DNA of 50,328 bases from a virus (IMGVR_UViG_3300037200_000052:1-50328); one strand, 5' to 3'; shown: positions 11,670 to 33,483, counted from the first letter of the stretch. Notes: generated by a model not told the origin, from the letters alone. A program made the numbers and translations.

Positions 11670-13424
11670 CTAATGATAACTACCGGCCCAAGAAAGTTCT
11701 TCATCGGGCAACATCGGGCCGGCAGCGGCGAACATGGCATCCAGCCGCCTGATCTCCAGAAGGGTGAATTGCGCCATGTTGATGCTACCCTCTTTGTCCC
11801 AGATTTCGGCCTGAGCCTTGACCGCTCGCCGAATCTCGTTCACGTAATCCCGGCGGGTACAGTTGAGGGGATGCCCATGCCAGAGACAGCCGATGGCGCG
11901 TTTGGATATTTCCGTTGGCTCGCGCTGGAGTTGCGTCGGCACTCCTATTTGGATTTGGGTGTCCCGTCCCGTCAACTCTCCGGCCACGATGCCGCACCAA
12001 TCCTCCGCCGTAGCTCCGCCAGACCCGCCGTCCAAGGCTTCGTAGAGCATTCTCAGGCTGTCTACACTGTGATTATATTCGTCCTTGGGCTCGTCTTCTC
12101 CCGCCTTCCACTCGTAACTCTCAAATTCGTTGATGGTATTTTCGCAGGATGGGTCAATCGTGAACCTTGGCAGGCCGTCGCCCTGAATCATCAGGCGATT
12201 TTGCAGGTAGGGAATACCGCCGGATTCCGGCCTGACCTTGCCCTTGGCCCCAATCAGCGACGTGTAGCTTGGCAGCGCATGGCGAAGATCAGCGATCAAT
12301 AGCGCGGCGGAGTTGTCCACCGCCGCTGTCGAGGCCATGAATTCCAATGCCCATGCTCGTGTCAATCCGACATGCTCTGCCAGATGTACGTGGCTCCGAT
12401 AGAACTCGCGAAAGACATGCCACCGCCGGTCGGTGTCCTCTCCCACCAACAGTGTCACCGCCGGGTCTGTCCACCCAGAATCGCAGCATAGATGCCATCG
12501 GCAGAATTCACTTTTCTCCCGGCTCCGAACGTGAACCTGCCTGTCAAACGTCGGGAACACCGCTCCCTCGGCGGTGGCCCATATATTTTCGAGAAGCCGT
12601 TTCCGCCGCACTCCCGATAGCGCCGCCAACGGCCGCATTCGGCGCCAGCCTTCCGCCGATAGAACGAACACCATTTCGTTTCGACGTACAACCGACAACT
12701 TTTCCACCTCATCATCCACGAGGTCGGGTGCTTCCTGAATGCTTTTTGGCCGGTGATAGCCCGAACCATATTTCTTCTGGAATTCTTCCTCGGTTAGAGA
12801 CTTGTAAAGCTGTGGATTATCGGTATGTCGAGAATCGAGCATGGGTGTTCGACCGGCATCACAACGGACTTTCAACCAGTGTTTGGCCGGTCCCGGGTTG
12901 CAGTCGGCAAATGTCTGGGCGTGCGGATAAACCGCGCTTCGACCCGTTGTGCAGGTGGTCAGCTTCTCCCAGTCATCCTCGCGTAATTCTTCCGCCTGGC
13001 AGACGTAACAAAAATCTTTTTCACTGGAAAGCACTTTGTCGGCGTTGTCCATGCCGCAGACCCAGAGACGCGATCCGTTGGAATACTGATAGTGTTCGAC
13101 ACGTTCCCCACCGTATTTCGATATGATACCATGCTGGATTTCTGCCTTCAGCAGTCGCTCATAGGTCAGCAGCACGGATGCCGGCATGGATTTTAGTTCA
13201 CGACGGATGATGACGCCCTGCGCGCCGGCGTACTTGGAAAGTATCAGGTGGGATTTCACACAGCAGGCAAGGCTCTTGCCTGTGTCGCGACCGCCACAGA
13301 TCACCAGTTCCCGGTTCCAGCGGTGTTCGCCTTCAATCAGTTGCCGCTGCGCGCCCCGGGGGACGTAGGAGCCGGGCGGGGCTTTGTCACCGAGACAGCG
13401 GACTTCATAGGTCGGTCCGGGCAT
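11670..13424 (-). CDS. terL: Terminase large subunit
   Basis: Walker A GGRDTGKS, Walker B-like YVCQAEE, ADCNPG coupling motif, and RNase H acidic motifs (CCDSGWTDP, NHSVDSLR). Confidence 0.93.
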   Translation of the reverse strand: MPGPTYEVRCLGDKAPPGSYVPRGAQRQLIEGEHRWNRELVICGGRDTGKSLACCVKSHLILSKYAGAQGVIIRRELKSMPASVLLTYERLLKAEIQHGIISKYGGERVEHYQYSNGSRLWVCGMDNADKVLSSEKDFCYVCQAEELREDDWEKLTTCTTGRSAVYPHAQTFADCNPGPAKHWLKVRCDAGRTPMLDSRHTDNPQLYKSLTEEEFQKKYGSGYHRPKSIQEAPDLVDDEVEKLSVVRRNEMVFVLSAEGWRRMRPLAALSGVRRKRLLENIWATAEGAVFPTFDRQVHVRSREKSEFCRWHLCCDSGWTDPAVTLLVGEDTDRRWHVFREFYRSHVHLAEHVGLTRAWALEFMASTAAVDNSAALLIADLRHALPSYTSLIGAKGKVRPESGGIPYLQNRLMIQGDGLPRFTIDPSCENTINEFESYEWKAGEDEPKDEYNHSVDSLRMLYEALDGGSGGATAEDWCGIVAGELTGRDTQIQIGVPTQLQREPTEISKRAIGCLWHGHPLNCTRRDYVNEIRRAVKAQAEIWDKEGSINMAQFTLLEIRRLDAMFAAAGPMLPDEELSWAGSYH

Positions 13425-13531: not shown

Positions 13532-14266
13532 ATGAAAGCCATCGGTTACATCCGCGTGTCCACCGAAGAACAGGCCCGGGACGGTCAATCCCTCGAACGC
13601 CAGCAAGCCCTGATCCGCGCCGAGTCGGACCGCCAGCACTGGGAACTGACTTCCATCCTCCGCGATGAAGGCGTGTCCGGCGGCAAACCCGCCGCCAAAC
13701 GCCCCGGGTTCTCGGCTCTCACCGACGCCATCCGAACGCGCGCCGCCGAAGTCGTTGTTGTCTCGGACATCTCCCGTCTCTCCCGCAGCCAGAAAGATAC
13801 CCTGATCTTCATCGAGGACGTGTGCCTGCCTTCGCACGCGCACCTGTATGCCATCGACAAGGGGTTCATCGAGAACAATACCGTGTCCGGTACCATGGAT
13901 CTCACCCTGCGCTCCCTGTTGGCCGAGGTTTACCGCAAGGAGATCAGTGAAAAAACCCTCCGGGCCATGGCCTTCAAACGTCAGCGCGGGGAATTGCTCG
14001 GGGGCTCAGGGCCTTTCGGGTTTTGCTCGGTCGATAACGGTAAACGTCGCATCGACCGGGATGGCCAGGAACGTATCATTTTCGACCTGGTACCATTGCC
14101 AGAAGAGCAGGCCACCATCCATAGGATTACAGCCCTTCACAAAGCAGGCGCCAGCCTTGCCGTTATCGCCCGCATACTCACCACCGATCTAGTCCCCACA
14201 AAACAGGGCAACTCACTCTGGTATCCATCTCAAATTAAAAGACTTGTAGAAAGAAAACAGCTATGA
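13532..14266 (+). CDS. Serine recombinase (resolvase/invertase domain plus short recombinase DNA-binding domain)
   Basis: GYIRVSTEEQ catalytic motif, DEGVSG, RPGF and SRLSRS; C-terminal TKQG..WYPSQIKR. Confidence 0.95.
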   Translation: MKAIGYIRVSTEEQARDGQSLERQQALIRAESDRQHWELTSILRDEGVSGGKPAAKRPGFSALTDAIRTRAAEVVVVSDISRLSRSQKDTLIFIEDVCLPSHAHLYAIDKGFIENNTVSGTMDLTLRSLLAEVYRKEISEKTLRAMAFKRQRGELLGGSGPFGFCSVDNGKRRIDRDGQERIIFDLVPLPEEQATIHRITALHKAGASLAVIARILTTDLVPTKQGNSLWYPSQIKRLVERKQL

Positions 14267-14646
14267 ACTTTTGGGATGAACAGGTTCTCTGGATTGCTTC
14301 CCACACCGACCGCCCACGCTATTCGGTATTTGCGTTGCTCTGGGAATGGAAACTGTTTCGAGATGCAGAAAAAATCAGTCACTCATGCAAAAAACGCCTG
14401 AAATCTCAAGAACGCCGTCATGCAATCCGTTTTGAAAAACGACTGCGAAAAATAGTGTCCGAAACCAAAACGGCGCTTCGGGAAACGCAGCGTACAAGTC
14501 CAGTCATACTACGCCAACTCAGGAAAGATCGTCGCGACTTCTTTGTTGCACGAGATGATCCAAAACGTCCCGTAAATATCTGCCCCGATCTCTGGTCGGA
14601 ACTCAAAAAAACAAAACGATGGGCTGAGAATCGAGGAATAAAATAA
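14263..14646 (+). CDS. Basic hypothetical protein
   Basis: 127 aa; ATGA overlap with the recombinase stop. Confidence 0.55.
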   Translation: MNFWDEQVLWIASHTDRPRYSVFALLWEWKLFRDAEKISHSCKKRLKSQERRHAIRFEKRLRKIVSETKTALRETQRTSPVILRQLRKDRRDFFVARDDPKRPVNICPDLWSELKKTKRWAENRGIK

Positions 14647-14780
14647 TGTCCCGCCCACGCAAATCTTCCAAAGGCAAGGTCATCAAAATATCCGTTTCCA
14701 TCACGCCGGAAGCCCTCAAAAAACTGCCCAAAAAAGGCCGAAGCGCGTTCGTTGACCGGTTACTCCTGAGAAAGGGGTAG
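14646..14780 (+). CDS. Small ribbon-helix-helix-like DNA-binding protein (44 aa)
   Basis: MSRPRKSSKGKVIKISVSITPEALKKLPKKGRSAFVDRLL: alternating beta strand plus RS-x-F helix. TAATG coupling to the upstream gene. Confidence 0.7.
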   Translation: MSRPRKSSKGKVIKISVSITPEALKKLPKKGRSAFVDRLLLRKG

Positions 14781-14903
14781 TGGGCTACTTTACGTATAGT
14801 GCGTAATTACGCACTTTTTAGAGCAGAGTTCGTACAACGGTGCAATTAGTTGCACCCGGCACCCCCGAAACCTTAGCAAAAGTGGAGAATTTGGCGCCAG
14901 CCA
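14774..14903. repeat. Cluster of three dispersed palindromic sites
   Basis: GTAGTGGGCTAC (14777-14788); 22 bp at 14797-14818 is an inverted copy of 33481-33502; 66 bp at 14838-14903 is an exact inverted copy of 25485-25550. Confidence 0.92.
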
Positions 14904-15012
14904 AAACCACTTCCCCCAAATCTTGGTTTTTCCGGATGTGGGACTGCGCACGACTTAGGACGTCGCAGCGCCTAAAAAGAACATGCTGGTTATCAACGGG
15001 TTACGCTATCAC

Positions 15013-15038
15013 CATAACACACCGCACGGTGTGTTATG
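15013..15038. other. Perfect 12-bp-arm palindrome just downstream of terS
   Basis: CATAACACACCG-CA-CGGTGTGTTATG. Confidence 0.8.
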
Positions 15039-15041
15039 CCT

Positions 15042-15641
15042 TCAAACCGAATCGCCCCCGACATTGACGTTAAACTGAATGTTTACTTGGCTTGTAGGCT
15101 GATCCCCGGTCATGCGGAGGATGCGGGCCATGAGCTCCAAGGCTTTGTGGCGGTCGTGGAGTTCTAGCTTGTAACCATACTTGTTGCGTTCCAGCGATTT
15201 CACCAGATGCCCATTCGCTGCTACCTTCTCGGGATCGAAGTCGAGGGTCGGTTTGCCTTCCTCGTCGAGTGCGAGGAAGTCGGAGATGTCGGTGCCTGCC
15301 ACGGCTCCCAAGTCAGCCATTACCCGGTCCGGCGTGAGGTGAAGGGAGCGCATCATGGGGATCAATGCGGCCTGTATGCGCTGATTGCTCAGGAGTTTAC
15401 TACCTTGTACATCGCAGGTGCCTGGGGAATACCCTGCACGCCTGGCGGCTTTGCTGGCGTTCCACGTCTTCAGGTACTCGTAGACGAAATCCCGCTGTTG
15501 ACCCGTTAGCTTGGGCAACCTGATACGCTTTGCCTTTGGTTTGGCGGGGTTGTGCTCCAGGATGGCCGTGGTTGGAGCTGTGGGGCGGCTGGCTGCGTCT
15601 TCCATGGTGGGGAGCATACATTCTGGCCGAACGCCTGTCAA
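15042..15641 (-). CDS. terS: Terminase small subunit
   Basis: LTGQQRDFVYEYLKTWNASKAARRAGYS HTH, GSKLLSN and KLELHDRHKALELMAR. Start codon uncertain. Confidence 0.92.
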   Translation of the reverse strand: MTGVRPECMLPTMEDAASRPTAPTTAILEHNPAKPKAKRIRLPKLTGQQRDFVYEYLKTWNASKAARRAGYSPGTCDVQGSKLLSNQRIQAALIPMMRSLHLTPDRVMADLGAVAGTDISDFLALDEEGKPTLDFDPEKVAANGHLVKSLERNKYGYKLELHDRHKALELMARILRMTGDQPTSQVNIQFNVNVGGDSV

Positions 15642-15723
15642 CGTGTCCCTTGGGCTTGTTGTTGCCGAACAGGTGGACGGCGATCGGTTCCCATGATTCT
15701 GATTGCCGTCCTGACCGCTGGAT

Positions 15724-15886
15724 TGTGTAAATAAAGGCAGAATCGTGTCGGAAAATCATACATTGAGTTGCAAGGGGTTACGCAATATGCGTCGGGATTG
15801 ATTACATGTCGGAAAACCTTACATATCAATTCATTAGGGAAATTGCGAGGTTGTAAGTGGCATGGGGAGTGCTATTGAAGGGGAGC
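15724..15886 (+). promoter_or_regulatory. Repeated sigma54-type promoter block, copy 1
   Basis: TGGCATG-N4-GTGCT (GG 15859-60, GC 15871-72); IHF consensus TATCAATTCATTA at 15824-15836; TGT-N11-ACA sites at 15746-62 and 15807-23. Confidence 0.75.
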
Positions 15887-16105
15887 ATGAAAAACAAAAA
15901 CATTCCGAGCGGAGTCCGAAACGCAGCAATCCACGTTTACCAGTCCGGCGCAGAGGTCGGTCGGGAGCCGATAGACTTTTCGCAGTACCGTCTGTGGGCC
16001 GAAGTCCCGAGCGAAGTGTGTGAGGCGCACCGAGTCCTGACCGCTGAGCAGATCGCACGATTCGGCCTCCAGCCCGATACCACGATCTTCGCAATTGAGG
16101 GCTGA
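15887..16105 (+). CDS. Hypothetical protein (72 aa), cassette 1
   Basis: ATG 14 nt after the -12 GC; ends IFAIEG. Confidence 0.7.
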   Translation: MKNKNIPSGVRNAAIHVYQSGAEVGREPIDFSQYRLWAEVPSEVCEAHRVLTAEQIARFGLQPDTTIFAIEG

Positions 16106-16127
16106 GCAATTCAGTTGAAGAAAGTTC

Positions 16128-16156
16128 TTTACAAACCGATCTGATAGGTTTATCTT
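16128..16156 (+). promoter_or_regulatory. Sigma70-type promoter with a palindromic spacer
   Basis: TTTACA-17-TATCTT; AAACCGATCTGATAGGTTT is an imperfect palindrome; ATG 9 nt downstream. Confidence 0.55.
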
Positions 16157-16165
16157 AAAAAAACC

Positions 16166-16435
16166 ATGAAAACAAATACAGTTCGAGCAGAAATCCTTCA
16201 ACGGGCCAAAAAGTATGTGGTCATCGACGATGGTCAATTCCAGTATCCGATGCTTCTCTCGGATACCGGCGCTGACACCGCTGACACCCTGCGCGATATG
16301 GGTGCCGATGCCTACTCGCACTGGTGCGCTACTCATCCCGCCGATCTCCGGTACGCCGAGGTCGGCTCGCAGGAGTGTATCGACCTTTGCCGCGATCTGA
16401 TCGAGGCGGGCTGTATATGTTGGAGGATAGCCTAA
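16166..16435 (+). CDS. Hypothetical protein (89 aa)
   Basis: ORF directly after the promoter-like sequence. Confidence 0.65.
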   Translation: MKTNTVRAEILQRAKKYVVIDDGQFQYPMLLSDTGADTADTLRDMGADAYSHWCATHPADLRYAEVGSQECIDLCRDLIEAGCICWRIA

Positions 16436-16437
16436 GC

Positions 16438-16761
16438 ATGGAGACCTTGCTCGTGTCGCGTGATGTCCGGTTCCGGTGCCCGCATTGCCACAAATGGATG
16501 CGGGTCCTGAAGCCGAATGCACCTCCTGACCGGCGTGCGCTGCTGTCGGGCGATCCGGGAGCACCACGGCGTCCGGGCAGGCTCAGAGGCAGCCGCAACA
16601 GACACCTGCATGGACACCAGAATCCGGCCCTGTGCGCCGAAATACACCGGATGCGACGTGGTGGCTCGACCCTACAGGCCATTGGCACCCGATTCTGCCT
16701 CACGCGCGAGCGGGTCAGGCAACTTTTGCGGGATTTCGACCCCGACGGCAGGCGAAGATGA
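16438..16761 (+). CDS. Zn-ribbon plus sigma70 region-4-like HTH protein
   Basis: CPHC, and TLQAIGTRFCLTRERVRQL. Confidence 0.7.
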   Translation: METLLVSRDVRFRCPHCHKWMRVLKPNAPPDRRALLSGDPGAPRRPGRLRGSRNRHLHGHQNPALCAEIHRMRRGGSTLQAIGTRFCLTRERVRQLLRDFDPDGRRR

Positions 16762-16928
16762 AATGTCCTCATTGTCAGCGTGAGATAAACGTCGGTTCGT
16801 TGCTCGGGCCGATCCGTAGCGAACGCAAGGCCGCGTCCAGCCGAGCCAACGGTCTGAGACCCTGTGCGCCCGGCAAACACCGTGGCCGGCCAAAAAAACT
16901 GAGCGATAAAGGTGCAGTTTCAAAATAG
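16758..16928 (+). CDS. Small CPHC / AT-hook-like DNA-binding protein, copy A
   Basis: MKCPHCQREINVGSLLG...SSRANG...RGRPKK; paralog of 18535..18678. Confidence 0.7.
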   Translation: MKCPHCQREINVGSLLGPIRSERKAASSRANGLRPCAPGKHRGRPKKLSDKGAVSK

Positions 16929-16956
16929 GCCACTACCTGGATTTCTGTCGGATTGC

Positions 16957-17105
16957 CAGAATGTCGTCGGAAAATCAGACATTGAGTTGCAAGGGGTTAC
17001 AGAAACAGCGTCGGGATTGATTACATGTCGGAAAACCTTACATATCAATTCATTAAGGAAATTGCATGGTTGGAAGTGGCATGAGGAGTGCTATTCAGAG
17101 GGAGT
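16957..17105 (+). promoter_or_regulatory. Repeated sigma54-type promoter block, copy 2
   Basis: Near-identical to copy 1; GG 17078-79, GC 17090-91; IHF site TATCAATTCATTA. Confidence 0.75.
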
Positions 17106-17480
17106 ATGAAAATGAAACTTAGCAAAAATGACCGAAACGATCCGCGCTCGCCAATTTGGAAGCGGCTCTATGCTTGCCTTACCAAAAACAGTTTTCGGGT
17201 GGGCAATTCGAGTTTTCCATTTAGTGGCGACGCTTGGAACACCTGCAGCATCGCCGGCCTTGACTCGCCGGAGGTGAATAGAAGCCTTCAAAAGCTACTG
17301 GAACACACCAAGCGGGGTCGGGAACGCGAAATGATTCTTATCTGCGCTGAACTCGGGCGCTTCTGGCTCGATGCACCAGAAAATAGTCGCCATCTATGCC
17401 GCGCCGACGTTCAGAAAAGCGTCGATGGACTCACGGCTATTGCTAACCGATACGTCGAAATCTTCGCAATTGAGGTCTGA
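17106..17480 (+). CDS. Hypothetical protein (124 aa), cassette 2
   Basis: ATG 14 nt after the -12 GC; ends IFAIEV. Confidence 0.7.
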   Translation: MKMKLSKNDRNDPRSPIWKRLYACLTKNSFRVGNSSFPFSGDAWNTCSIAGLDSPEVNRSLQKLLEHTKRGREREMILICAELGRFWLDAPENSRHLCRADVQKSVDGLTAIANRYVEIFAIEV

Positions 17481-17530
17481 CCTACGACAGGATATAGAAG
17501 GAATGACACAGTGAAAAGGAGAATGTAGTT

Positions 17531-18160
17531 ATGATCAAAAAACTCGGAACCATTGAGCAAGAGGTCAAAGCCTGCCGCGAAGCTTTTGCCGCCTCAAAAG
17601 TAGGCGATATGGTATGGCTTTGCCACCATGGAGTGCTTTGCGAGGATCTTACCGAGCCCCCAGAGGCCAGAATTGCCTACATTTTGGCATACAAGCCGGA
17701 ACATGAGCAAGCCCGACGGTTGCGCGAGTTTCGTCCGGTCAAAAGCAAAAAGGCCGTCGCCAAATGGCAGGCCGAGTGCGACGCGATGAGCGCCAAACGG
17801 CAGGCCAAGCGCGACGCGGTGAGCGCCAAATGGCGGGCCAAACGCGATGCGGTTGCCGCCAAATGGCGGCCCGGGTACGACGCGGTGAACGCCAAATGGC
17901 AGGCCAAACACGACGCGGTGGACGCCAAATGGCAGGCCGAGTGCGACGCGGTTGCCGCCAAATGGCGGGCCGAGCTCGACGCGGCGGACGCCAAATGGCA
18001 GGCCGAGCGCGATGCGGTGGCCGCCAAATGGCGGGCCGAGCGCGATGCGATGAACGCCAGATGGCGGGCCGAGGACGACGCGATGGATGCCAAACTGGAA
18101 GCACTGCACAAAAAAGAATATCCGTTCACGCGCTGGAACGGAAAGACGATGTTTGTCTGA
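17531..18160 (+). CDS. Hypothetical protein with 11-aa helical tandem repeats
   Basis: About ten AKW(Q/R)AE(C/R)DAVx units (33-bp repeats, ~17758-18095); AAGGAG upstream. Confidence 0.8.
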   Translation: MIKKLGTIEQEVKACREAFAASKVGDMVWLCHHGVLCEDLTEPPEARIAYILAYKPEHEQARRLREFRPVKSKKAVAKWQAECDAMSAKRQAKRDAVSAKWRAKRDAVAAKWRPGYDAVNAKWQAKHDAVDAKWQAECDAVAAKWRAELDAADAKWQAERDAVAAKWRAERDAMNARWRAEDDAMDAKLEALHKKEYPFTRWNGKTMFV

Positions 18161-18263
18161 CCTTCGCGCCTATCCGCCCGCGATTAGATCACGGGCGGTT
18201 GCGCGGCGGGGAGTGAGAGCGGTGGTTCAATGACGACCACGGCAAACCAAAAGGAATGACACA

Positions 18264-18473
18264 GTGAAATGGAATCTAAAATTTGAGAGCGGCGTTTGCT
18301 GGCGTCAGCCGGGCGCAAGGAAGCCCGTTGAGTTTGACACGGTAGAGTTGGCTTTGGCTTCCGCCAAAACTTCCGCAGATCAACTAGCGCGTGCTGGCTA
18401 TGCCAGTGAAGCGCGTTTGTTCAAAGCGGCACAAGCGGTCAAGATTGATATGCGCTGGGGAAAGGACAAATGA
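18264..18473 (+). CDS. Hypothetical protein (69 aa)
   Basis: ORF after AAGGA, in the plus-strand island. Confidence 0.55.
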   Translation: MKWNLKFESGVCWRQPGARKPVEFDTVELALASAKTSADQLARAGYASEARLFKAAQAVKIDMRWGKDK

Positions 18474-18534
18474 ACCGACTCTCCAATACTGACCGCTCGC
18501 GGGTTGTTGCCTGCATTGTCGAGGACAACAGCCG

Positions 18535-18678
18535 ATGAAATGCCCACATTGTAAGCGGAGTCTGAATGTCGGGGCTTTGCTTGGCTCGATAAAGTCCAAG
18601 GCCAAATCCGATGCGTCGCGCCAGAACGGGAAGCTTGGGGGACGCCCTCGAAAGAAGCCCACCGAACAGAAGGGTTAA
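18535..18678 (+). CDS. Small CPHC / AT-hook-like DNA-binding protein, copy B (47 aa)
   Basis: MKCPHCKRSLNVGALLG...ASRQNGKLGGRPRKK. Confidence 0.7.
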   Translation: MKCPHCKRSLNVGALLGSIKSKAKSDASRQNGKLGGRPRKKPTEQKG

Positions 18679-18681
18679 TAA

Positions 18682-18844
18682 TGTGTAAAGAAAGGCAGAA
18701 TCGTGTCGGAAAAGCAGACATTGAGTTGCAACGGGTTACGCAATATGCGTCGGGATTGATTACATGTCGGAAAACCTTACATATCAATTCCTTGGGCAAA
18801 TTGCATGGTTGGACCTGGCATGAGGAGTGCTAACTATGTATGAA
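18682..18844 (+). promoter_or_regulatory. Repeated sigma54-type promoter block, copy 3
   Basis: GG 18817-18, GC 18829-30; IHF site TATCAATTCCTTG; TGTCGGAAAAGCAGACA site. Confidence 0.75.
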
Positions 18845-19192
18845 ATGAACAAAATCAAACACAATAATAACTGCGGAGAGAGAAGGCAGGAGAACCAAAT
18901 GAATTACGAAAATCGAAAATACGGAATCAAAATTGAAGGGGATACAATCACCGCCCATTTTGGTGCGTTTGACCAAAACGAATACCGCACCCAAGCTAAC
19001 ACCGAAGTATGGGGATACCCAGCGAAAACCATCGCCTTCTGGAAAAGCCCGAAGTCGCGGGGGGGAGGATGGGTTGGCGTGAATCTCGAAACCGATGCCG
19101 TTTCCAACCACACCGAGCTTTATCTTCTTCTTCACGAACTTCGGGGCGAGTCCCAAACCGGTGACGCCGTGGACAAGGCAGGTGGGGAGTGA
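18845..19192 (+). CDS. Hypothetical protein, cassette 3
   Basis: ATG 14 nt after the -12 GC; an alternative SD-led start lies at 18899. Confidence 0.65.
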   Translation: MNKIKHNNNCGERRQENQMNYENRKYGIKIEGDTITAHFGAFDQNEYRTQANTEVWGYPAKTIAFWKSPKSRGGGWVGVNLETDAVSNHTELYLLLHELRGESQTGDAVDKAGGE

Positions 19193-19479
19193 ACCCAAAT
19201 CGACATCCCACCGGCGCGTTTGTCGGCATGGTAATAATCCTCACCCTCGCCTTCTGGCTGTCATGGCTGGCCTATGCTATTTACAACTGGCAGATCGTGA
19301 AACCATGACCCCGCCCATCACCGTTGCGGCCAAGAAACTGATTGCCCAGCTATCTGTCGAGGGCCGGGGAACGTATGCCGAGATCGTCAATGTATGCCTT
19401 CGGGAAATGGGAACGCCACTGGTCAACGGGTTGCAATGGCATGACGTTAGGTTTTGCCTTCGGTCGGGACTTCTGCCGA

Positions 19480-19863
19480 TCAAAGAAAGCGTGACGAAAT
19501 GAATCTATCCCGAGCCACCATCACCAAATCTATCAGCTTACGACCTTCTGCCGGGTTCTGGTGTACCCAATCATGGTGCGCTCTACAAAGACAGATTCCG
19601 TTCGATTCAACGTGTCTCAAATCTGACCGCGCCTTTTTTCCCTCGATGTGGTGCGCGTGATTCGTGTTGTACCGGTCGCAGTGTGGTCTGAATACCCGAT
19701 TCCACAACTGACACTGGTTCCCATCCCTCTCTAGTACCGCCTTCCTCCACTTCGCATCCAGGTACTCGACTCGCCCCCGGTTCTTCGACCGCTTCCGTAA
19801 CGGCGCCTTGCGTACACGTGGAGTTCCAACTGCGTTGAGTCTTTGTAGCCCACTACCCCCCAT
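19480..19863 (-). CDS. HNH endonuclease
   Basis: WRKAVLERDGNQCQ, HAHHI and NGICLCRAHHDWVH. Confidence 0.88.
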   Translation of the reverse strand: MGGSGLQRLNAVGTPRVRKAPLRKRSKNRGRVEYLDAKWRKAVLERDGNQCQLWNRVFRPHCDRYNTNHAHHIEGKKARSDLRHVESNGICLCRAHHDWVHQNPAEGRKLIDLVMVARDRFISSRFL

Positions 19864-20821
19864 CCACCGATATCAACTCCTGTTCTTTCACTTCTGGCTT
19901 GATGTCCGCTAGATTCCGAACCGCCTGTCGGAAGTAGGATGCCTTGAGTTCCACCCCGACCGCACGCCTGCCATTTAGCACAGCACCATAGACCTCGCTA
20001 CCAACCCCCATGAAAGGCGTCACTACCGTCTCGCCCGCATTCGACCAAAGGACGACCGCGCGTTCTATCACGTCGAGTTGCAATGGATGAACATGGCGCT
20101 CATCGTCTGGTTCCCGGCTTTCCTTGTAGGGCAATACCCGCTCAATCCGAATATCATCCCAAAACGCGCTTGCGTATTGTCTCCAAATCCAGTGTGAGTA
20201 TCGGTTCTCGATCTGGTTCCCCTGGTGGCCTTTATATTGCTGTAGCTCTCTGGGAATCTCGCGCGATCCCGCGTAAGTGGCAAGACCTGTCGGATGCCCC
20301 ACCGGGATTGCATTCTCGCCTTTCTTGCGGAACATAAGCAGATAGTCCGCTGCCGCAACATCGCAGAGAGTCGAGTCATTTACAACTTGCGCGTGTGCAA
20401 GACCTTTCGCCATCGTGCGATTTCGGACGCCAAGAGGTTCTTTCCAAACGTGATAACGAGCGCAGTATTGGAATCCAAGTTTCTCATGGAGCCGGATGAT
20501 GTCTCCCGAGAAGTCAATCAGTCCTCCGCCAGTGTTCGCCCCCGCCCGGGGCACGTCCGCACAATGCACGGCACTGATCCTGCCGGGCTTGGTGAGCCGA
20601 TGGAGTTCTTTCACTACAAAACCGTAATGTTCAAAAAATTCGTCGTAGTCGCGGCAGTTGCTCATATCGCGTTCGCTTGACGAATAATTATACAGCCCGG
20701 CAAACGGCGGACTGTAAATACTCATGTCTGCCGTGTTCGCTGGTAGTGATGGCAATACCTCGCAGCAATCGCCGCAGTAGAGAGCGTATCGGTCAGTTAT
20801 GGTTTGGTCTTTGACAGCCAT
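19853..20821 (-). CDS. DNA amino-methyltransferase (N4-C/N6-A, beta class)
   Basis: Motif IV YSPPF, HVHPLQLD, and motif I TPFMGVGSE. Confidence 0.92.
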   Translation of the reverse strand: MAVKDQTITDRYALYCGDCCEVLPSLPANTADMSIYSPPFAGLYNYSSSERDMSNCRDYDEFFEHYGFVVKELHRLTKPGRISAVHCADVPRAGANTGGGLIDFSGDIIRLHEKLGFQYCARYHVWKEPLGVRNRTMAKGLAHAQVVNDSTLCDVAAADYLLMFRKKGENAIPVGHPTGLATYAGSREIPRELQQYKGHQGNQIENRYSHWIWRQYASAFWDDIRIERVLPYKESREPDDERHVHPLQLDVIERAVVLWSNAGETVVTPFMGVGSEVYGAVLNGRRAVGVELKASYFRQAVRNLADIKPEVKEQELISVDGG

Positions 20822-22179
20822 GACGGGACTTCCTCCTGTTTGGTGTAGTCGTTTTGTCGTTTGATTTTCAGTTCGTCCATCATCAGCGCGACCAGATGTT
20901 CAAACATTACGTCCGCTGCTTCCGTCTTTCGTTTCAGATTGGCAAGGACGTTGGCCTGTCCATCCGTAGATATGAGGTCAACTGTCACTGGCCGTTTCTG
21001 ACCGAATCGCCAGCACCGTCGCGTTGCCTGATAGTATTGCTCATAGGAATGCGATGGGAAAAACGTCATGTGGGCGCAGTGCTGAAAGTTCAAACCCAGC
21101 GAAGCTATGGTTGGTTTTGTGACAATCACGCGCACCTTGCCAGAAACAAAATCCCTGAATGCTTCCTCCTTGCTATCTTCGCTGTCACTCCCTTCGATGT
21201 CCACAGATCCGGGAATCAGCTTCTTGAGCAGCTTGGCCTCTGTGTTCAAGTGACACCATGCGATCGCCGGTTTCTTGTGGGCGTTAATGAGTTCAGCAGA
21301 CATCTCGCATCGCTCATTGACCGTTCTGTGCAATTCCTCGCGTTGTTCCTGTAATCCGCTTGCCGGAAGTTCAAAGAGCATCCCTTCGGCCTTGCGCCGG
21401 GCTGTGACCTTATGCGCCCGTACAATCAATTCCGGCAGCTTGAAATCCGCATCATCGAAACCCATGTCGGAAGGCTTACGCATGGCTCGCGCCCATGAGC
21501 AGACCCACCGCCAAAAATCATGCTCCGCGTGACCTCGGAAATGCCAACCCTGACCGCCGCGGTTATAGAGCTTCACGAACACTTTGTCGCGTTTAAAGAA
21601 TCGGTTGAGCATGTCCATGTAACCTAGTTCACCAAGCGCATCCGATGAAGTTCCAAGTTCGATGTAATCATTCGGCGCGGCGGTCGCCGTATAGAGTGCA
21701 CGATAGGGAATCTTGCGCATGAAGTCCGTCACAGCCTGACGGGTAGCGCCGTCGAAGTTTTTCAAAATGCTCGACTCATCGCAAACCACGCCACCGAAGT
21801 CAGATGGTGCGAAGTGGTGTAGCCGTTCGTAATTCGTCACAACCAAACGACTGCTTGTGCCGCCAAGACCATCTCGTAAATGTTCTACCTCAAGGTCGAG
21901 CTTTGCGCCTTCTCGTACTGTCTGGAATGCGACCGATAGCGGAGTCAGAATTAGAACTGGCTTATCAGTTTTTTGGGCGACATTCTCGGCCCATACAAGT
22001 TGCTGAAAAGTCTTTCCAAGCCCACAATCGGCGAACGTCGCTGCTCGGCCTTTTCGGAGGGCCCATTCTGTCAGAGCTACTTGAAATGGGAATAGCTTTG
22101 ATGGCATCCATGTGGGCGCGAAGCCGTACTCGGAACCGACATGAGTTTTCCGTTGAAGGAAGTTGATGTAGTGATTCAT
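20797..22179 (-). CDS. SNF2-related SF2 helicase
   Basis: ADCGLGKT, VVCDESS, TATAAPND and QATRRCWRFGQ. Confidence 0.92.
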   Translation of the reverse strand: MNHYINFLQRKTHVGSEYGFAPTWMPSKLFPFQVALTEWALRKGRAATFADCGLGKTFQQLVWAENVAQKTDKPVLILTPLSVAFQTVREGAKLDLEVEHLRDGLGGTSSRLVVTNYERLHHFAPSDFGGVVCDESSILKNFDGATRQAVTDFMRKIPYRALYTATAAPNDYIELGTSSDALGELGYMDMLNRFFKRDKVFVKLYNRGGQGWHFRGHAEHDFWRWVCSWARAMRKPSDMGFDDADFKLPELIVRAHKVTARRKAEGMLFELPASGLQEQREELHRTVNERCEMSAELINAHKKPAIAWCHLNTEAKLLKKLIPGSVDIEGSDSEDSKEEAFRDFVSGKVRVIVTKPTIASLGLNFQHCAHMTFFPSHSYEQYYQATRRCWRFGQKRPVTVDLISTDGQANVLANLKRKTEAADVMFEHLVALMMDELKIKRQNDYTKQEEVPSWLSKTKP

Positions 22180-22263
22180 AGTAGCTCTCCGTTCGTATCG
22201 CTGGCCGTGTCAATCCCCCGTCCGCACCCGCATTCCCACTGCCAGTTTGTTCCCTCCTTGTCC

Positions 22264-23103
22264 TCAAACATGGTGAGCCTTTCGTTTCACTTTTCCGGGT
22301 ACGCTCCAGATAAAATTCCGAAGCATTGATTCCAGTTCGTCCCTGGTTCCCCCCGCTTTCAAAAAATCGCGCAGGTCTTTGCCGACGGGCGGAAATACTA
22401 TCACGCTCGGTACGGTCAAGACCTTCTGTAGTTTCTCCGCACCACGTAACCCGGCCTCGTTCTCGTCCACGTCGGCGCAAATAACAACTCGCCGGATACG
22501 GTTGAGTCTCACGTACTCGACTGCCATCTCGTCACACGCGCTGCAATTTGGCCTGCCAATCGCGCCCAGTCCTAGCGTCAGGGCGGCACTGAGACTGGTT
22601 GGGCCTTCCACCAGCCAAAGCGGTTGCTTGTTGTCTACGGGCATCGTGGAGCGAAATAACGCGTTCCTTGAGCCGGTCCATGCGTATTTGTCGCCTTCCA
22701 GTGTCCTTATCCGTATCCCGACGATCTTCCCCTTGGCGTCGTACATCGGGAACCCCCAAGCTTGGCGCTCCGGTATCCAACATGCCCCAATCATCCACAA
22801 TGCCCCGCCTTCAACGCCCAAGGCATCGCCAAGCTCGTTAACCCGTTTCGGTGTTGTCTTGTCCTTCCATCCTCGCCACAAGGCTCCGGCGTCGATTGTG
22901 ACGGGTTTTTTAGGCTTCCGCGTTACGGGAATTCCCGCAACGGGGTTCGCGGCCGTATGCAACCATCCGCCGTTTTTCAGCGGCCTGTCACTCGTCAGTC
23001 TCATGCAACAGTATTTCCCATCATCCGTGTACGTGCACCAGTCCGGTTTCTTGCACCCTTCGCATGGTCGTTTCTTGCTGACTCTGTGCCAGACCTGATT
23101 CAT
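22264..23103 (-). CDS. Zn-finger plus TOPRIM primase-like protein
   Basis: CEGCKKPDWC, LVEGPTS, ICADVD and KDLRDF. Likely start MNQVWHR. Confidence 0.85.
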   Translation of the reverse strand: MNQVWHRVSKKRPCEGCKKPDWCTYTDDGKYCCMRLTSDRPLKNGGWLHTAANPVAGIPVTRKPKKPVTIDAGALWRGWKDKTTPKRVNELGDALGVEGGALWMIGACWIPERQAWGFPMYDAKGKIVGIRIRTLEGDKYAWTGSRNALFRSTMPVDNKQPLWLVEGPTSLSAALTLGLGAIGRPNCSACDEMAVEYVRLNRIRRVVICADVDENEAGLRGAEKLQKVLTVPSVIVFPPVGKDLRDFLKAGGTRDELESMLRNFIWSVPGKVKRKAHHV

Positions 23104-23230
23104 CTTCCGTAAAACCATCCTTCGCAGTCGGTATGAAGATATACGTCAAACTCCGTGCCGGTCTTTTCTCTGACCAGTACCCAGTGGACCGGGTTTTCGG
23201 TTACGGGTTTGTTGCAGTGGAAGCAGAGGG

Positions 23231-25003
23231 TCAGATCAAATCTCCGTTGGTTTCAGATTGTGGAATTTTGTTGTTGACACCAGAAAAATTTTGCCCTATA
23301 TCCGGATCCACGTTGCAAGTATGAGAGTCAGATTGGGTGTCTGGTGGTTGAGTTGCAGTCTGGTCGTTTCCTTCTGGCCAGCGTTTCCCGTTCTTAACAC
23401 ATCCATCAATCAGGCGGGAGGCTTCCCACTTCACCAGATTCGGATCGTCGTACACTTCCTTCGGAGCCTTGCAATACTTTAGAAAGTTTCGCTGCGGTAG
23501 AGTCGCTGAAATCAGTTCCTTGTGTCGGGTGAGGTTCTCCATGATGGTGTGATCGTCCGGGTTCCATCCGTTCTTGATGAGCCGATCCCTCTGTTTCCGG
23601 CTGAGGCGTGGCCCCTGTTGAAACCCTTCCCATTTCTGGGCGTGTTTGTGGTAAGCCTCAAAGGGATCAACGTAGGTTGCGCGGAATGACGCTTTCGCTT
23701 TGATGCCTTTTCTGACTTCCGTTTCCGCGTCAATCAGTTCCGCCAATATATCCCCGCGTCCGGCTTTCTCGACTTTCTCTCTGGCCTTGGCCTTGGCTTC
23801 CTCGGAGAAATTCCCACCCAACACGTCAACGCTGCTTATTGTCAGTTTGTGGCGTAGAGCGTTCCCCTTGAAATCCAGTACCAACACATTCGGTTTCGGA
23901 CTGGCGGCGATGGCGGAACGCCTCTCCTCAGCGGTCGGATATTGGTCTACCAGTCCGCTCAATGGTCGAGTGCCACGCCCCAACATCTGAGTGTAAAGCG
24001 ACCGGCTCAAAGTCGGGCGTGCAACAACGATTGCCTCAATGCCGGGAACATCGACACCCTCAGTCACGACTCCAACATTAACGAGAAACTGAATCTCTCC
24101 GTTATGAAACCTCTTGAATGTATCCCGTCGTGTATCCTCCGGTGTATTACCAAAAACGGTTGCTGCACAATTGGGTTTATACCGATTGAAAATCTCTGCA
24201 TACCGTTCAGCCTGCTTGACAGTGACGGCAAACACAAGCGTCCGCTTGTCGCCCACGGTCTGTAAGGTTGAGTCCGCGATTCCCAAAAGAGGCTTTTCTT
24301 CCTCCAGCACATCTGCCAGATCGCGCTGGTTGAAATCTCCGGCCGTTACCCGGCAATTCGAGAAGTCCAACCCGTCAATTTTCACCAGGCGTTGATCGAC
24401 ATTGACGAGCCAGCCTTCCTGTATCAGATATTGAATGTGGATATTGAAGGCTACGGCGTCGATGATTCTCGCCAGTGCTTTTCCATCGTGACGGTCGGGA
24501 GTGGCGCTGCATCCGAAAAACTTCAGGTTCTGATTTTGCTTGAAGTGATTGATGATTGTCTGGAATTTTGGCGAGACGAAATGGTGCACCTCATCGACCC
24601 ACAGCATTTCAAACTCAGCCGGGTCAAACCGTTTCAATCTAGCCCCATCTCGTGAGTACAAAGTTTGGGGCGTACCTATCACCACTTGATTTCGGTTCCA
24701 CAGCTTCACGGAAGCGCAGCGATCCGCTTTTTCGATGTCGGCTCGGATTCCAAATTGCGCCAGCCGATTCCTGGCTTGTTCGACAAGTTCGTTTCTGTGA
24801 CATACCACGAATGTCCGGCAACCACGACGACGGATCAGTTCGCAGGCTACCTGAGTCTTGCCGCCACCAGTTGCCATGCAACCCAAAACAGAGTTGTGGG
24901 TCTGCCATTTCGATTCGACATCATCAGCCGCTTGCACCTGATAGGGACGCAACACACATGGAGATTCCGGCTTTGCTACCAGCGTGAAAAGGTCTTCAGT
25001 CAC
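23231..25003 (-). CDS. DEAD/DEAH-box SF2 helicase
   Basis: LRPYQ, MATGGGKT, DEVHH, SATPDR, TEGVD and QMLGRGTR. Confidence 0.95.
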   Translation of the reverse strand: MTEDLFTLVAKPESPCVLRPYQVQAADDVESKWQTHNSVLGCMATGGGKTQVACELIRRRGCRTFVVCHRNELVEQARNRLAQFGIRADIEKADRCASVKLWNRNQVVIGTPQTLYSRDGARLKRFDPAEFEMLWVDEVHHFVSPKFQTIINHFKQNQNLKFFGCSATPDRHDGKALARIIDAVAFNIHIQYLIQEGWLVNVDQRLVKIDGLDFSNCRVTAGDFNQRDLADVLEEEKPLLGIADSTLQTVGDKRTLVFAVTVKQAERYAEIFNRYKPNCAATVFGNTPEDTRRDTFKRFHNGEIQFLVNVGVVTEGVDVPGIEAIVVARPTLSRSLYTQMLGRGTRPLSGLVDQYPTAEERRSAIAASPKPNVLVLDFKGNALRHKLTISSVDVLGGNFSEEAKAKAREKVEKAGRGDILAELIDAETEVRKGIKAKASFRATYVDPFEAYHKHAQKWEGFQQGPRLSRKQRDRLIKNGWNPDDHTIMENLTRHKELISATLPQRNFLKYCKAPKEVYDDPNLVKWEASRLIDGCVKNGKRWPEGNDQTATQPPDTQSDSHTCNVDPDIGQNFSGVNNKIPQSETNGDLI

Positions 25004-25848
25004 TTCTTTTTACCTGGTGAACACGTCTCGAAAAGATACTTGGACAGAAACCCGCGTCCATAACACCGTGTGCAATTCTTGGTGTTCAATCCCCGGCAGA
25101 CATCGCACACGGCATGGGGAATCATCTGTTTCAGGGAAAATCGCAGGGCTTCAATGTCGCTCATGGTCGTATTGGAAAGCTCTCGACTGGCCGGCTCTCG
25201 TTTGTTTGGAGGACAATCCAGATCGCCCACCATGGCCTTCACTTCACCAAGCATCGACCACACCTTCTTGCCGAGTTCCTCTGCTGTCCGCCAGTCCAAC
25301 AAAATCTTTTCGGGAATCGGTGTCCCAAGTTTGTCGAGTTGGATAATGGGTTTTTCTTCGATTTTGGCAGCAGCCTCTTTGACTTCGGTTTTTGCAGCCT
25401 CAATATCCTTTGGTTTGCCACTCTTCGCGCGGGCCAAAATATCGACCTGTTTTGCCGTTGGAATGCCATCCAGAATCTTGCGGGTGGCTGGCGCCAAATT
25501 CTCCACTTTTGCTAAGGTTTCGGGGGTGCCGGGTGCAACTAATTGCACCGCAGTTTTGTCATCCAAAAGCGCTTTTAGTTCGACAATTCGTTGACCCGTT
25601 TTGTAGAGTTGTCGCGCCCATTCCTCGGTGAAACCGCATGATTCCACAAAGTCCTTCCAAGTGTCATGGTGGAGCTTCCACACGCCCGTTGTTTTGGCTT
25701 CGTAATACACTTGGGAAAATAAAATCGTGTGTTTCGCCCAAGAACTGAGGGTCTGGTGAATGCGACGATAATCTTTTTCGGTTGCTGTTGCGGCGAGAGG
25801 GGATGGCATATCAATTCCTCTCGTTCTGCAATGTTTCGGCGGCGGCAA
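25000..25848 (-). CDS. Putative HTH DNA-binding protein with C-terminal Zn finger
   Basis: WKLHHDTWKDFVESCGFTEEWARQL (HTH-like); CDVC...CTRC.GRG; contains the 66-bp duplicated site. Confidence 0.7.
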   Translation of the reverse strand: MPPPKHCRTRGIDMPSPLAATATEKDYRRIHQTLSSWAKHTILFSQVYYEAKTTGVWKLHHDTWKDFVESCGFTEEWARQLYKTGQRIVELKALLDDKTAVQLVAPGTPETLAKVENLAPATRKILDGIPTAKQVDILARAKSGKPKDIEAAKTEVKEAAAKIEEKPIIQLDKLGTPIPEKILLDWRTAEELGKKVWSMLGEVKAMVGDLDCPPNKREPASRELSNTTMSDIEALRFSLKQMIPHAVCDVCRGLNTKNCTRCYGRGFLSKYLFETCSPGKKK

Positions 25849-26038
25849 TTATCTCATCGACTTGTTGTTGACCCCACAACTTGTAATGCTTTCGCATCCA
25901 ATCCCACCGAGGCCCTGCTCCATCCTTGTGATCGCGAACATCTCGGAAACCCAAACCCTTATCTAGTATGTCAGCTCTGCATCCCGCCGAATCGTCCACA
26001 GACACAATCATTGTCAGTATCTCCTTGGCGTACATCAT
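25811..26038 (-). CDS. Hypothetical protein
   Basis: 75-aa ORF collinear with the operon. Confidence 0.5.
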   Translation of the reverse strand: MMYAKEILTMIVSVDDSAGCRADILDKGLGFRDVRDHKDGAGPRWDWMRKHYKLWGQQQVDEIIAAAETLQNERN

Positions 26039-26057
26039 GTGAATTTCCGGTAGTGGG

Positions 26058-26414: not shown

Positions 26415-26470
26415 TTTTAACCTTCAATTCTCAAAATAGCCCACTACCGAATTTCCCCCACTCTGAAAAG

Positions 26471-33459: not shown

Positions 33460-33483
33460 CAACTATTTTAGACAAAATCGAAA

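Follow-up and report, generated by a model that had tools for sequence, protein, structure and literature searches.

An exact 66-bp inverted repeat in a phage genome as a recent ectopic copy of early-gene sequence and a candidate antisense element

The 66 bp at 14838-14903 of the phage genome analyzed here, a DNA stretch of 50,328 nt referred to as the window, are the exact reverse complement of 25485-25550 (66/66 bases). The right arm (IR-R) lies inside the first gene of the replication module, called the early gene below, and the left arm (IR-L) is intergenic, between terS and a serine recombinase operon. The exactness of the repeat and the placement of one arm between genes and of the other inside a gene had been stated in the original prediction and are confirmed by the sequence match and the ORF map. 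The best reading, to which a probability of about 0.35 is given, is that IR-L is a recent ectopic copy with a built-in effect at the RNA level. The plus strand of IR-L is early-gene sense, and its minus strand is perfectly complementary to the mRNA of the early gene, a minus-strand gene.

Origin and setting of the repeat

About 5e-31 exact inverted matches of 66 nt are expected in 50 kb, and the longest exact inverted match in 30 mononucleotide shuffles was 14-18 nt; a chance origin of the 66/66 match is far too improbable. A terminator hairpin pair of 22 nt (I5) comes second among the exact inverted repeats of the window, and the next-longest inverted arm listed for the window is 40 nt at 73%. 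Since the 300-nt flanks of the arms show no similarity above shuffled controls (score of 10 against means of 9.6-9.9), the edges of the repeat are sharp. The recombinase operon ends with a stop codon 57 nt before IR-L; on the minus strand, IR-L lies 138 nt beyond the stop codon of terS. An 18-bp dyad (Table 1) occurs in the two arms only and, as RNA, would form a hairpin with a 7-bp stem.

The ORF of the early gene has 282 codons, with a likely ATG start at 25809 giving a protein of 269 aa, and IR-R encodes VQLVAPGTPETLAKVENLAPA. The C-terminal part of the protein, with two CxxC pairs, is conserved among homologues, and the N-terminal part is variable. No match was found in Pfam, PHROG or NCBIfam; Atlas leads to DUF3102 and ParB_N are the sole support for the earlier label of HTH protein, and a ParB-like N-terminal motif was seen by eye in the homologues P0006 and P0007. 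The replication promoter of the original prediction was not identified. Since a homologue with 53% identity (P0004) aligns through the copied peptide and keeps that stretch, the early-gene copy is the original and the intergenic copy the derived one. In an AF2 model, the copied peptide falls in a low-confidence, linker-like region (residues 85-115, pLDDT below 50), so that the protein may constrain this DNA less.

IR-L is embedded in a 261-bp spacer, which runs from the terminator region of the recombinase operon to terS and is a patchwork containing a copy of the terminator hairpin at 33481-33502, a copy of the motif at 26049-26064, and an incomplete copy of the D3 upstream element (14975-15009). 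The copy of the terminator hairpin at 33481-33502 faces the minus strand, and the T-run beside IR-L is on the plus strand only. For the motif copies at 14776 and 26049, the left edge is the exact point at which contigs from a sequencing run (X2) diverge from the window. A second hairpin with an 11-bp stem (15013-15038) lies between IR-L and terS. Compared with shuffles, the spacer has a more stable predicted fold on either strand (z = -3.6), with z = -3.5 for the minus-strand core, and an Rfam search of the spacer gave no match. The segment between the arms contains terS and genes for HNH, a methyltransferase, a Toprim protein and two helicases, together with three plus-strand sigma54-type promoter cassettes; the cargo listed earlier (terS, sigma54 cassettes, HNH, methyltransferase, helicases) is borne out by annotation.

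Table 1. Features of the window around the two arms of the 66-bp inverted repeat
Feature	Coordinates	Strand	Remark
terL, large terminase subunit	11670..13424	-	parted from terS by the plus-strand recombinase operon
Serine recombinase, 244 aa	13532..14266	+	Pfam Resolvase; catalytic Ser10 motif RVST present
ORF127, basic protein	14263..14646	+	start overlaps recombinase stop codon
44-aa ORF	14646..14780	+	ribbon-helix-helix-like by eye
Motif GGTAGTGGGCTACTTT	14776..14791	+	more copies at 26049(+), 26440(-), 16922(-)
Terminator-like palindromic hairpin GTGCGTAATTACGCAC, then T5	14799..14819	+	faces the plus-strand operon
Left arm, IR-L	14838..14903		derived, intergenic copy of the 66-mer
18-bp dyad GGTGCAA-TTAG-TTGCACC	14839..14856		outer edge of the repeat
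Structured part of the spacer	14904..15041		hairpin across the repeat edge, D3 piece, second hairpin
Stretch between the arms, 10,581 bp	14904..25484		terS to the 3' two-thirds of the early gene
terS, small terminase subunit	15042..15641	-	3' flank leads into IR-L
Early/replication-module gene (P0001/P0003)	25000..25848	-	first gene of the module, directly upstream of helicase
Right arm, IR-R	25485..25550		original copy, within the early gene, residues 101-121 of the 282-codon ORF

A candidate antisense RNA

A 66-bp piece of the linker-coding part of the early gene was copied, one-way, recently and in reversed orientation, into a non-coding spacer between terS and the acquired recombinase operon, a spacer made of pieces from elsewhere in the genome; the copy would not serve as a dedicated recombination site. 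A minus-strand transcript running from terS towards terL would include 66 nt perfectly complementary to the early-gene mRNA. RNA from late transcription could therefore pair with this mRNA, which might then be cleaved or silenced. With both arms on one long read-through RNA, a long-range duplex might form inside that RNA. Occasional inversion through homologous recombination over the 66 bp would be a side effect yielding a disabled genome. The sequence establishes that the 66 bp were duplicated, in which direction, where the copy lies and how the strands relate; transcription across 14838-14903 and any regulatory effect are what we infer from the arrangement. An antisense element in a terS-terL transcript had been the second choice of the original prediction; it fits the strand logic and is now the top-ranked candidate for a functional reading. 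The structure of the spacer, the plus-strand-only T-run beside the copy and the orientation of terS count in its support. A search between terS and the repeat found no promoter-like site; two promoter-like matches were found with 1.4 expected, and the one before terS is at chance level. The strong hairpin that immediately follows the terS stop codon might terminate or process the transcript ahead of the repeat, and none of the RNA runs was found to contain the stretch. Relatives carrying the 66-bp element were not found, and it is known from one lineage only.

Nearly as likely as the antisense reading is that IR-L is a neutral relic, a filler 66-mer left by recent illegitimate recombination or repair at a mosaic junction, which has no function and will decay. 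The 100% identity of the arms is equally expected for a young neutral relic. A derived copy with sharp edges and dissimilar flanks, restricted to this lineage and set in a spacer assembled from other duplicated pieces, is consistent with such an origin, as are the non-coding-like ORF over the copy and two features of the sequencing runs described below, an X2 contig diverging from the window at 14775 and the over-deep terS piece in X1 and X2. Against a relic, the copy adjoins the only recombinase found and is in antisense orientation, each a modest coincidence. Because a disabling inversion is possible, an exact inverted repeat is costly, and selection should purge it unless it is young or useful. 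Under the antisense reading, the place of the copy beside the recombinase operon is taken as a coincidence, with roughly 7% for a random intergenic landing by our own estimate from the gene map.

The recombinase operon, the orientation of the segment and other roles of the repeat

The window is a metagenome assembly with a terminal overlap of 122 bp; the phage comes from peat soil and was binned with an acidobacterial genome. All four arm/flank junctions are present in Logan k=31 contigs of two runs (X1 and X2) from two studies, and these contigs cross each of the four boundaries by 30 nt, with depths of about 10-52 in X1 and about 108-131 in X2. A second assembly (G001:C359; 28,933 nt) is 100% identical to the window wherever checked, both arms included; X1, X2 and the MAG are perhaps from the same or related samples, and the independence of the assemblies is partial. 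That one copy is an assembly artefact absent from the real molecule is hardly credible, given the junction-spanning contigs built independently in two runs and the separate assembly that is identical across both arms. Because the k=31 contigs break inside the 66-bp arms, they are blind to orientation, and a rare inversion may occur. The window and G001:C359 both run unbroken through both arms in one shared orientation, collinear with a distant relative (L072) in the order helicase, methyltransferase, terS and terL; the orientation seen in both assemblies matches ancestral synteny. An X2 contig matches the DNA to the right of 14775 and diverges on the recombinase side, weakly suggesting that the 66-mer goes with the terS side and not with the recombinase cassette. 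The terS piece 14874-15804 is over-deep (in X1 51.6, compared with about 10-17; in X2 131, compared with about 108-123), suggesting module exchange around this spot.

The three-gene recombinase operon (13532-14780) is best explained as an acquired element between terL and terS. The recombinase matches Pfam Resolvase (E = 6e-30) and, below threshold, the start of PF07508 (20.7 against 21.1 bits), with no other Pfam domain at E <= 0.01. Its catalytic domain is nearest to that of the TP901-1 integrase, and the protein stops short in the first half of PF07508. It scores 52 bits against the Mpi invertase model of NCBIfam, whose cut-off is 272, and the best PHROG match is 'integrase' (1e-53), followed by 'DNA invertase' (1.5e-30). 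Homologues number 373 proteins at E <= 1e-20, with lengths of 188-284 aa among the 120 listed, and family members have about 225-250 aa. A small invertase of the Hin/Gin type (about 190 aa, with a C-terminal HTH) was rejected on length and domain content, and a large serine recombinase or phage serine integrase (>400 aa, with the full domain, zinc ribbon and coiled coil) was rejected on length and domain content. ORF127 has no family match and is missing from the modules of relatives, and the 44-aa ORF is homologous to a small ORF after the recombinase in L003 and L075. The available DNA around the 57-58% identical recombinases of L003, L074 and L075 showed no inverted repeat of more than 24 nt with >=90% identity, and linkage of such a site to the recombinase was seen at 0/3 loci. 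A tyrosine integrase adjoins the recombinase at two of them (L003 and L074), and a conserved dyad, absent from the window, lies upstream of the recombinase gene at all three.

A programmed inversion, in which the adjacent recombinase flips the 10.6 kb at the arms as a replication or life-cycle ON/OFF switch, is quite improbable. It is equally doubtful that such a flip, perhaps helped by ORF127 and the 44-aa protein, switches replication and packaging. The anatomy of an invertible switch is present as claimed: the copies are inverted, the operon is located immediately beyond one arm, the second arm is coding, and the constant N-terminal part of the early protein is outside the segment. The recombinase retains its catalytic serine motif, and the dyad lies within the arm. 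In an in-silico flip, the conserved C-terminal part of the early protein has a 182-codon in-frame ORF, and this ORF, the helicase, the Toprim protein, the other helicase, the methyltransferase and HNH are co-directional with the recombinase operon. The flipped state would also cut the early gene in two and part terS from terL. The alternative C-terminus proposed for the early protein (ORF 14840-15067) does read the repeat in the frame of the early gene, and the in-silico flip yields the in-frame fusion that had been predicted. The 54-codon tail in which the flipped N-terminal fusion ends is non-coding-like, its codon score of -0.139 being below those of 318/318 in-frame windows of confident genes (minimum of -0.124) and within the off-frame distribution. 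The GTG at 14840 has no Shine-Dalgarno-like sequence before it. A terminator stands between the operon and the left arm, two assemblies show one orientation with no break at the arms and with the ancestral synteny, and the homologous recombinases lack long inverted repeats, two of them adjoining a tyrosine integrase; these observations, together with the missing upstream dyad and the X2 contig that places the 66-mer weakly on the terS side, argue against a programmed inversion. The single orientation, the non-coding-like tail and the lack of repeats at homologous recombinases leave the life-cycle-level DNA switch of the original prediction with no result in its support.

It is also unlikely that IR-L is a second DNA site for a protein that acts on the original copy, comparable to SPP1 oriL and oriR, the putative binder of the dyad being the early-gene product or another regulator. 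The original copy lies in the first replication-module gene, directly upstream of the helicase and in a linker-like stretch, and the other copy is 10.6 kb off, surrounded by packaging genes and part of an insert with transcription signals on both sides; this layout resembles that of SPP1 in the excerpted account of that phage (PMC6316719). The confinement of the dyad to the arms, the ParB-like motif of P0006 and P0007 and the Atlas leads to DUF3102 and ParB_N are consistent with such a site. Neither a cluster of repeated boxes outside the 66-mer nor an AT-rich region was found at either copy: the AT content over the two arms in 30-nt steps is 0.37-0.60, that of the wider scanned regions is 0.33-0.67, and both arms fall outside the 12 most AT-rich 100-nt windows. 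Furthermore, the dyad is not encodable in the 53%-identical homologue because the peptide differs there, and the early-gene product has no family match and a low-confidence model.

Significance and comparison with known systems

If the antisense reading is true, a single 66-bp duplication would provide a simple shut-off of an early replication gene at the onset of late transcription. If the copy is a relic, mosaic phage junctions would be shown to collect short pieces of the phage's own genes, and an exact inverted repeat beside a recombinase would be insufficient for calling an inverton. If the flip is true, phage DNA-inversion switches would reach beyond host-range genes into the core of replication and packaging, and the Mu-G geometry would have a new use beyond tail fibres, in a phage binned with an acidobacterial genome.

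In the Mu (G/Gin), P1 (C/Cin), Hin, Pin and PinQ systems, inverted sites flank a kilobase segment with the serine recombinase outside one of them; in inversion of the Mu/P1 type, the other site is coding and the flip swaps a C-terminus. The geometry of the Mu G and P1 C segments is the same as here, with inverted arms, a recombinase outside one arm and the other arm coding. However, the segment here carries replication and packaging genes instead of tail-fibre genes, the alternative C-terminus is non-coding-like, one orientation is seen, and the homologous recombinases have no inverted repeat. The crossover site of Hin/Gin-type systems is about 26 bp with dyad symmetry and is accompanied by a recombinational enhancer; here each arm has an 18-bp dyad at its outer edge. 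The recombinase here has 244 aa with a partial PF07508-like C-terminus, not about 190 aa.

In the excerpted account of Anabaena cyanophages, a segment of about 30 kb flanked by inverted repeats of 400-700 nt, position-conserved in nine phages, shows genome isomerism, with both isomers demonstrated by PCR and reads; no dedicated recombinase is required there, and general recombination is offered as the cause (bioRxiv 10.64898/2026.02.14.705889). The present case is similar in having a large gene-rich phage segment between inverted repeats, but the repeat is 66 bp, in one lineage and with one isomer seen. Invertons of gut bacteria that are intragenic or partly intergenic (PMC10028968) and putative viral invertons (PMC13501310) have, in the parts of these reports drawn on here, arms inside genes whose inversion would recode a protein, as it would here; they are defined by reads in both orientations, whereas the present repeat is known from assemblies in one. 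In SPP1, according to the excerpted account, oriL lies inside gene 38, the gene of the origin-binding protein itself, and oriR is about 13 kb away in a late-region insert with morons (PMC6316719). Unlike the SPP1-type origins of that account, neither direct repeats (iterons) nor an AT-rich unwinding element was found here. The likeness to SPP1, within the same account, is that one copy is in the first replication gene and the second is about 10-13 kb off in a moron-bearing insert of the late region.

In the c4 RNA of P1/P7, the CI RNA of P4 and lambda sib, a short phage sequence copy gives rise to an RNA complementary to a target mRNA, and retroregulation by lambda sib needs read-through of a long transcript. 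In contrast to c4, CI and sib, the repeat described here does not allow a separate small RNA with a promoter and terminator of its own to be defined; the complementarity is perfect over 66 nt, and the two sites are 10.6 kb apart.

The inverted repeat and its two copies

The left arm (14838–14903) is the reverse complement of the right arm (25485–25550) at 66 of 66 bases, confirming the exact inverted repeat of the original prediction. The chance expectation for such inverted matches is about 5e-31; in 30 shuffled sequences, exact inverted matches reach at most 14–18 nt, and the exact inverted repeat that comes next in the window, a pair of terminators, measures 22 nt. Over 300 nt to either side, the flanks of the two arms resemble each other only at the level of shuffled sequence, indicating that the edges of the repeat are sharp. 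All four arm/flank boundaries are crossed by 30 nt in the Logan k=31 contigs of X1 and X2, two sequencing runs from two studies, and these contigs stop 30 nt past the boundaries, which is what a repeat exceeding k should produce. C359, a separately assembled 28,933-nt contig of the same phage in the metagenome-assembled genome (MAG) G001, is 100% identical to the window at every stretch checked (locus L073 against window 3532–24263, with 0 mismatches, and window 24800–26300; the ends of C359, at window positions 2244 and 31176); C359 and the runs may have samples in common with the window and are not fully independent. The junctions in both runs and the identity of C359 do not bear out the concern that one copy arose during assembly, and the probability of such an artefact is negligible. 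C359 (window 2244–31176) is binned in a 9.4-Mb MAG labelled Bryobacterales and carries no host flanks, giving a hint of the host only.

The virus record is complete, with 50,328 bp and a terminal overlap of 122 bp. Most genes are on the minus strand, and the structural genes include a head-protease/capsid-like gene. Each of the three repeated cassettes has repeated upstream GTCGGAAAA...ACAT boxes, followed by a TGGCAT-N5-GTGCT element, which we take from its consensus to be a sigma54-type −24/−12 promoter, and then by an ATG. The cassettes would drive small plus-strand genes against the minus-strand backbone and look like mobile regulatory cassettes dependent on an enhancer-binding protein. 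There are also two in-frame tandem arrays, one of a 33-nt period (17704–18132) inside ORF 17531–18160 and the other (31051–31554) inside gene 30641–31594, with a 24-nt period and 15 or more register copies that overlap; C359 terminates within the latter array. A 36-nt direct repeat (26606–26641 and 26677–26712; 97% identical, 71 nt apart) is present in the divergent region beside ORF 26502–26831.

Features of the window
Feature	Position	Strand	Remarks
Portal	7573–10044		
terL	11670–13424		
Plus-strand block 2	13532–14780	+	three-gene operon, tightly coupled
Serine recombinase	13532–14266	+	244 aa; Pfam Resolvase, E 6e-30; RVST serine motif present
ORF127	14263–14646	+	basic 127-aa protein
44-aa protein	14646–14780	+	ribbon-helix-helix-like (by eye)
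Motif GGTAGTGGGCTACTTT	14776–14791	+	
Motif GGTAGTGGGCTAYTTT	14776–14791 (+), 26049–26064 (+), 26433–26448 (−), 16922–16937 (−)		
Palindromic hairpin + T5	14799–14819; repeated 22-nt unit 14797–14818	+	terminator-like
terS	15042–15641		
Cassettes	15738–15898, 16957–17117, 18696–18856	+	84–88% identical over 161 nt
Plus-strand block 1	15860–19500	+	three repeated cassettes
HNH	19480–19863		
DNA methyltransferase	19853–20821		
Helicase	20797–22179		
Toprim protein	22264–23118		
Second helicase	23231–25003		
Early gene	25000–25848	−	carries the right arm

The right arm codes for VQLVAPGTPETLAKVENLAPA, residues 101–121 of the 282-codon ORF of the early gene, which is directly upstream of the second helicase gene. 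The early gene has no family match among Pfam, PHROG and NCBIfam profiles, and a protein database search finds five proteins at E ≤ 1e-3, the query included. Since one of the four other relatives, with 53% identity, aligns through the copied stretch and to either side of it, the gene has the native copy, and the intergenic one derives from it. The C-terminal part of the family is conserved with two CxxC pairs, the N-terminal part is variable, and two members have a ParB-like N-terminal motif by eye. Atlas leads for the product, taken as leads only, are phage proteins, of which some carry DUF3102 or ParB_N. The AF2 model is poor (mean pLDDT 52.8), and residues 85–115, including the copied peptide, are predicted to be linker-like, with pLDDT below 50.

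The derived copy is located in a 261-bp spacer, in which the operon is followed by the motif, the hairpin with its T5, an 18-nt spacer, the 66-mer, a 138-nt structured spacer and the terS stop codon. An identical 22-nt copy of the hairpin and T-run at 33481–33502 faces the minus strand, and the hairpin appears to be a reused terminator, each copy facing the strand of the genes it trails. The 138-nt spacer contains a partial copy of the cassette upstream element (14975–15009) and a hairpin with an 11-bp stem. The motif recurs at 26049, 26440 and 16922. Since the hairpin, the motif and the partial cassette element all have counterparts in the genome, the 261-bp spacer seems to have been pieced together from parts occurring elsewhere in it. 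The spacer folds better than shuffled sequence on both strands (z about −3.5), and one hairpin spans the inner edge of the 66-mer; there are no Rfam matches in the window. Motif GGTAGTGGGCTAYTTT was rejected as a promoter because its orientation relative to neighbouring genes is inconsistent. At two copies of the motif, a single X2 contig leaves the window sequence precisely at the left edge (14775 and 26047), and the foreign flank is not found in the window. This divergence points to the motif as a marker of module borders between phages that occur together.

The recombinase operon and its relatives

The recombinase belongs to a family of proteins of about 225–250 aa, with 373 proteins at E ≤ 1e-20 and lengths of 188–284 aa among the 120 listed. 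The catalytic domain is nearest to those of large serine recombinases, with TP901-1 integrase as the best PDB match (1.6e-13), and the PHROG assignment is 'integrase' (1e-53) versus 'DNA invertase' (1.5e-30). The C-terminus stops within the first half of PF07508, a sub-threshold match, and all NCBIfam models score well short of their cut-offs. By domain content the architecture is neither that of Hin/Gin nor that of a large serine recombinase, which counts against a life-cycle switch. ORF127 has a codon score of −0.043 versus a mean of 0.22 for confident genes; no relatives were found and it is absent from the modules of L003, L074 and L075, three loci with 57–58% identical recombinases, and it may be foreign or non-coding. 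The 44-aa protein has homologues in L003 and L075, encoded there by the small ORF that comes behind the recombinase gene.

In L003, genes for a primase-helicase, a small HTH protein, terL (46% identity), the recombinase, a small ORF and a tyrosine integrase follow one another, and in L074 the recombinase is followed by a tyrosine integrase and host genes (response regulator, MutS). The two integrases share 60% identity, and neither has a homologue in the window. A conserved module, in which a short serine recombinase and in some cases a small ORF lead into a tyrosine integrase, is seen at the edge of integrated elements (L003 5998–8188; L074 8970–11114), and the context in L003, L074 and L075 resembles a module for lysogeny or maintenance. 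A dyad, GTAACACTT-N6-AAGTGTTAC, conserved just upstream of these recombinase genes (L003 5880–5910, L074 about 8900, L075 411–430), could serve the family as an operator or as a recombination site. It is missing upstream of the window recombinase gene, where only a 7-mer, regarded as chance, is shared by eye with the relatives' upstream regions. In L072, a distant locus with a 40% identical terL, the helicase, methyltransferase, terS and terL genes are collinear on one strand and a recombinase is undetected, and so the window operon is read as a probable insertion between terS and terL.

The exact 66-mer is absent from viral_contigs and metagenome_contigs, where near-window records may be omitted, and a protein-level search of viral_contigs gives no close relatives for the early gene or terS; terL relatives are only 40–46% identical. 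The early gene has a match in 1 of 301 genomes of the order of G001 and terL in 1 of 401 genomes of its phylum, in both cases G001 itself. The sole match in the phage collection is a 69-nt stretch of terS in Ralstonia phages.

Proposed inversion of the block between the arms

The original prediction was a programmed 10.6-kb inversion acting as a life-cycle switch. When the block is flipped in silico, the early gene on the minus strand is reduced to 121 of its own codons followed by a 54-codon tail, and the plus strand gains a 182-codon ORF from GTG 14840 for the conserved C-terminal part, followed by the helicase, Toprim protein, helicase, methyltransferase and HNH genes, co-directional with the recombinase operon; terS faces away from terL, about 11 kb off. 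The arrangement has the geometry of the invertible G segment of Mu, and this geometry together with a certain logic of the flipped block keeps the inversion model alive. The predicted new C-terminus is indeed in frame, but its tail resembles non-coding sequence: its codon score of −0.139 falls below the lowest value (−0.124) among 318 in-frame 54-codon windows taken from confident genes, and such a score is usual in off-frame sequence. Furthermore, GTG 14840 has no preceding Shine-Dalgarno-like sequence, a terminator separates the operon from the arm, both assemblies pass both arms in a single orientation, which is that of ancestral synteny, and a long inverted repeat is found in none of the three loci with related recombinases, within the available locus DNA. 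The 46-mer adjoining the left arm on its right side, which would have revealed an assembled flipped junction, is absent from metagenome_contigs. A life-cycle switch is very unlikely.

An X2 contig that matches the window to the right of 14775 and differs to the left also speaks, weakly, against inversion. The terS piece from the left arm to the first cassette (14874–15804) has excess k-mer depth in X1 (51.6 versus about 10–17) and X2 (131 versus about 108–123), reflecting either another genome with the same module or a short part common to something abundant. This divergence and excess depth are together a weak sign of a co-occurring genome in which the terS-side DNA, probably including the 66-mer, is present and the recombinase operon is not. 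Since k=31 contigs break in the arms, orientation is unreadable from X1 and X2, and a rare flipped form is possible. A 2026 cyanophage preprint describes isomers of about 30 kb flanked by inverted repeats of 400–700 nt, both forms being seen by PCR and reads (bioRxiv 10.64898/2026.02.14.705889), and a 2026 paper describes putative viral invertons from gut metagenomes (PMC13501310); the portions available of these two sources contain no case like that of the window.

Possible antisense RNA and other readings of the derived copy

The minus strand encodes the early gene, the plus strand of the left arm has the sense of that gene, and a minus-strand RNA leaving terS would therefore be complementary to the early-gene mRNA over 66 nt without a mismatch. 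Since the T-run of the hairpin is on the plus strand only, the terminator is expected to act on transcripts of the recombinase operon and not on minus-strand ones. Antisense action, offered originally as the alternative to inversion, is the top-ranked functional reading on the basis of arm orientation, with a tentative probability of roughly 0.35. A promoter scan is at chance level, no RNA runs are listed as containing the stretch, and two RNA runs have one 18-nt piece at each of two repeat copies and nothing more. A neutral relic of recent origin comes close to antisense in probability. The two-copy layout would also fit a second protein-binding site in the pattern of SPP1 oriL/oriR, as far as the part of the source consulted describes it (PMC6316719). 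However, iterons and an AT-rich element were searched for at both copies and none were found, making this analogy unlikely. The antisense reading remains preferred among functional roles. Antisense-type control is known in phages from P1 c4, P4 CI and lambda sib, and it is these systems that a terS-derived RNA directed against the early gene would resemble.
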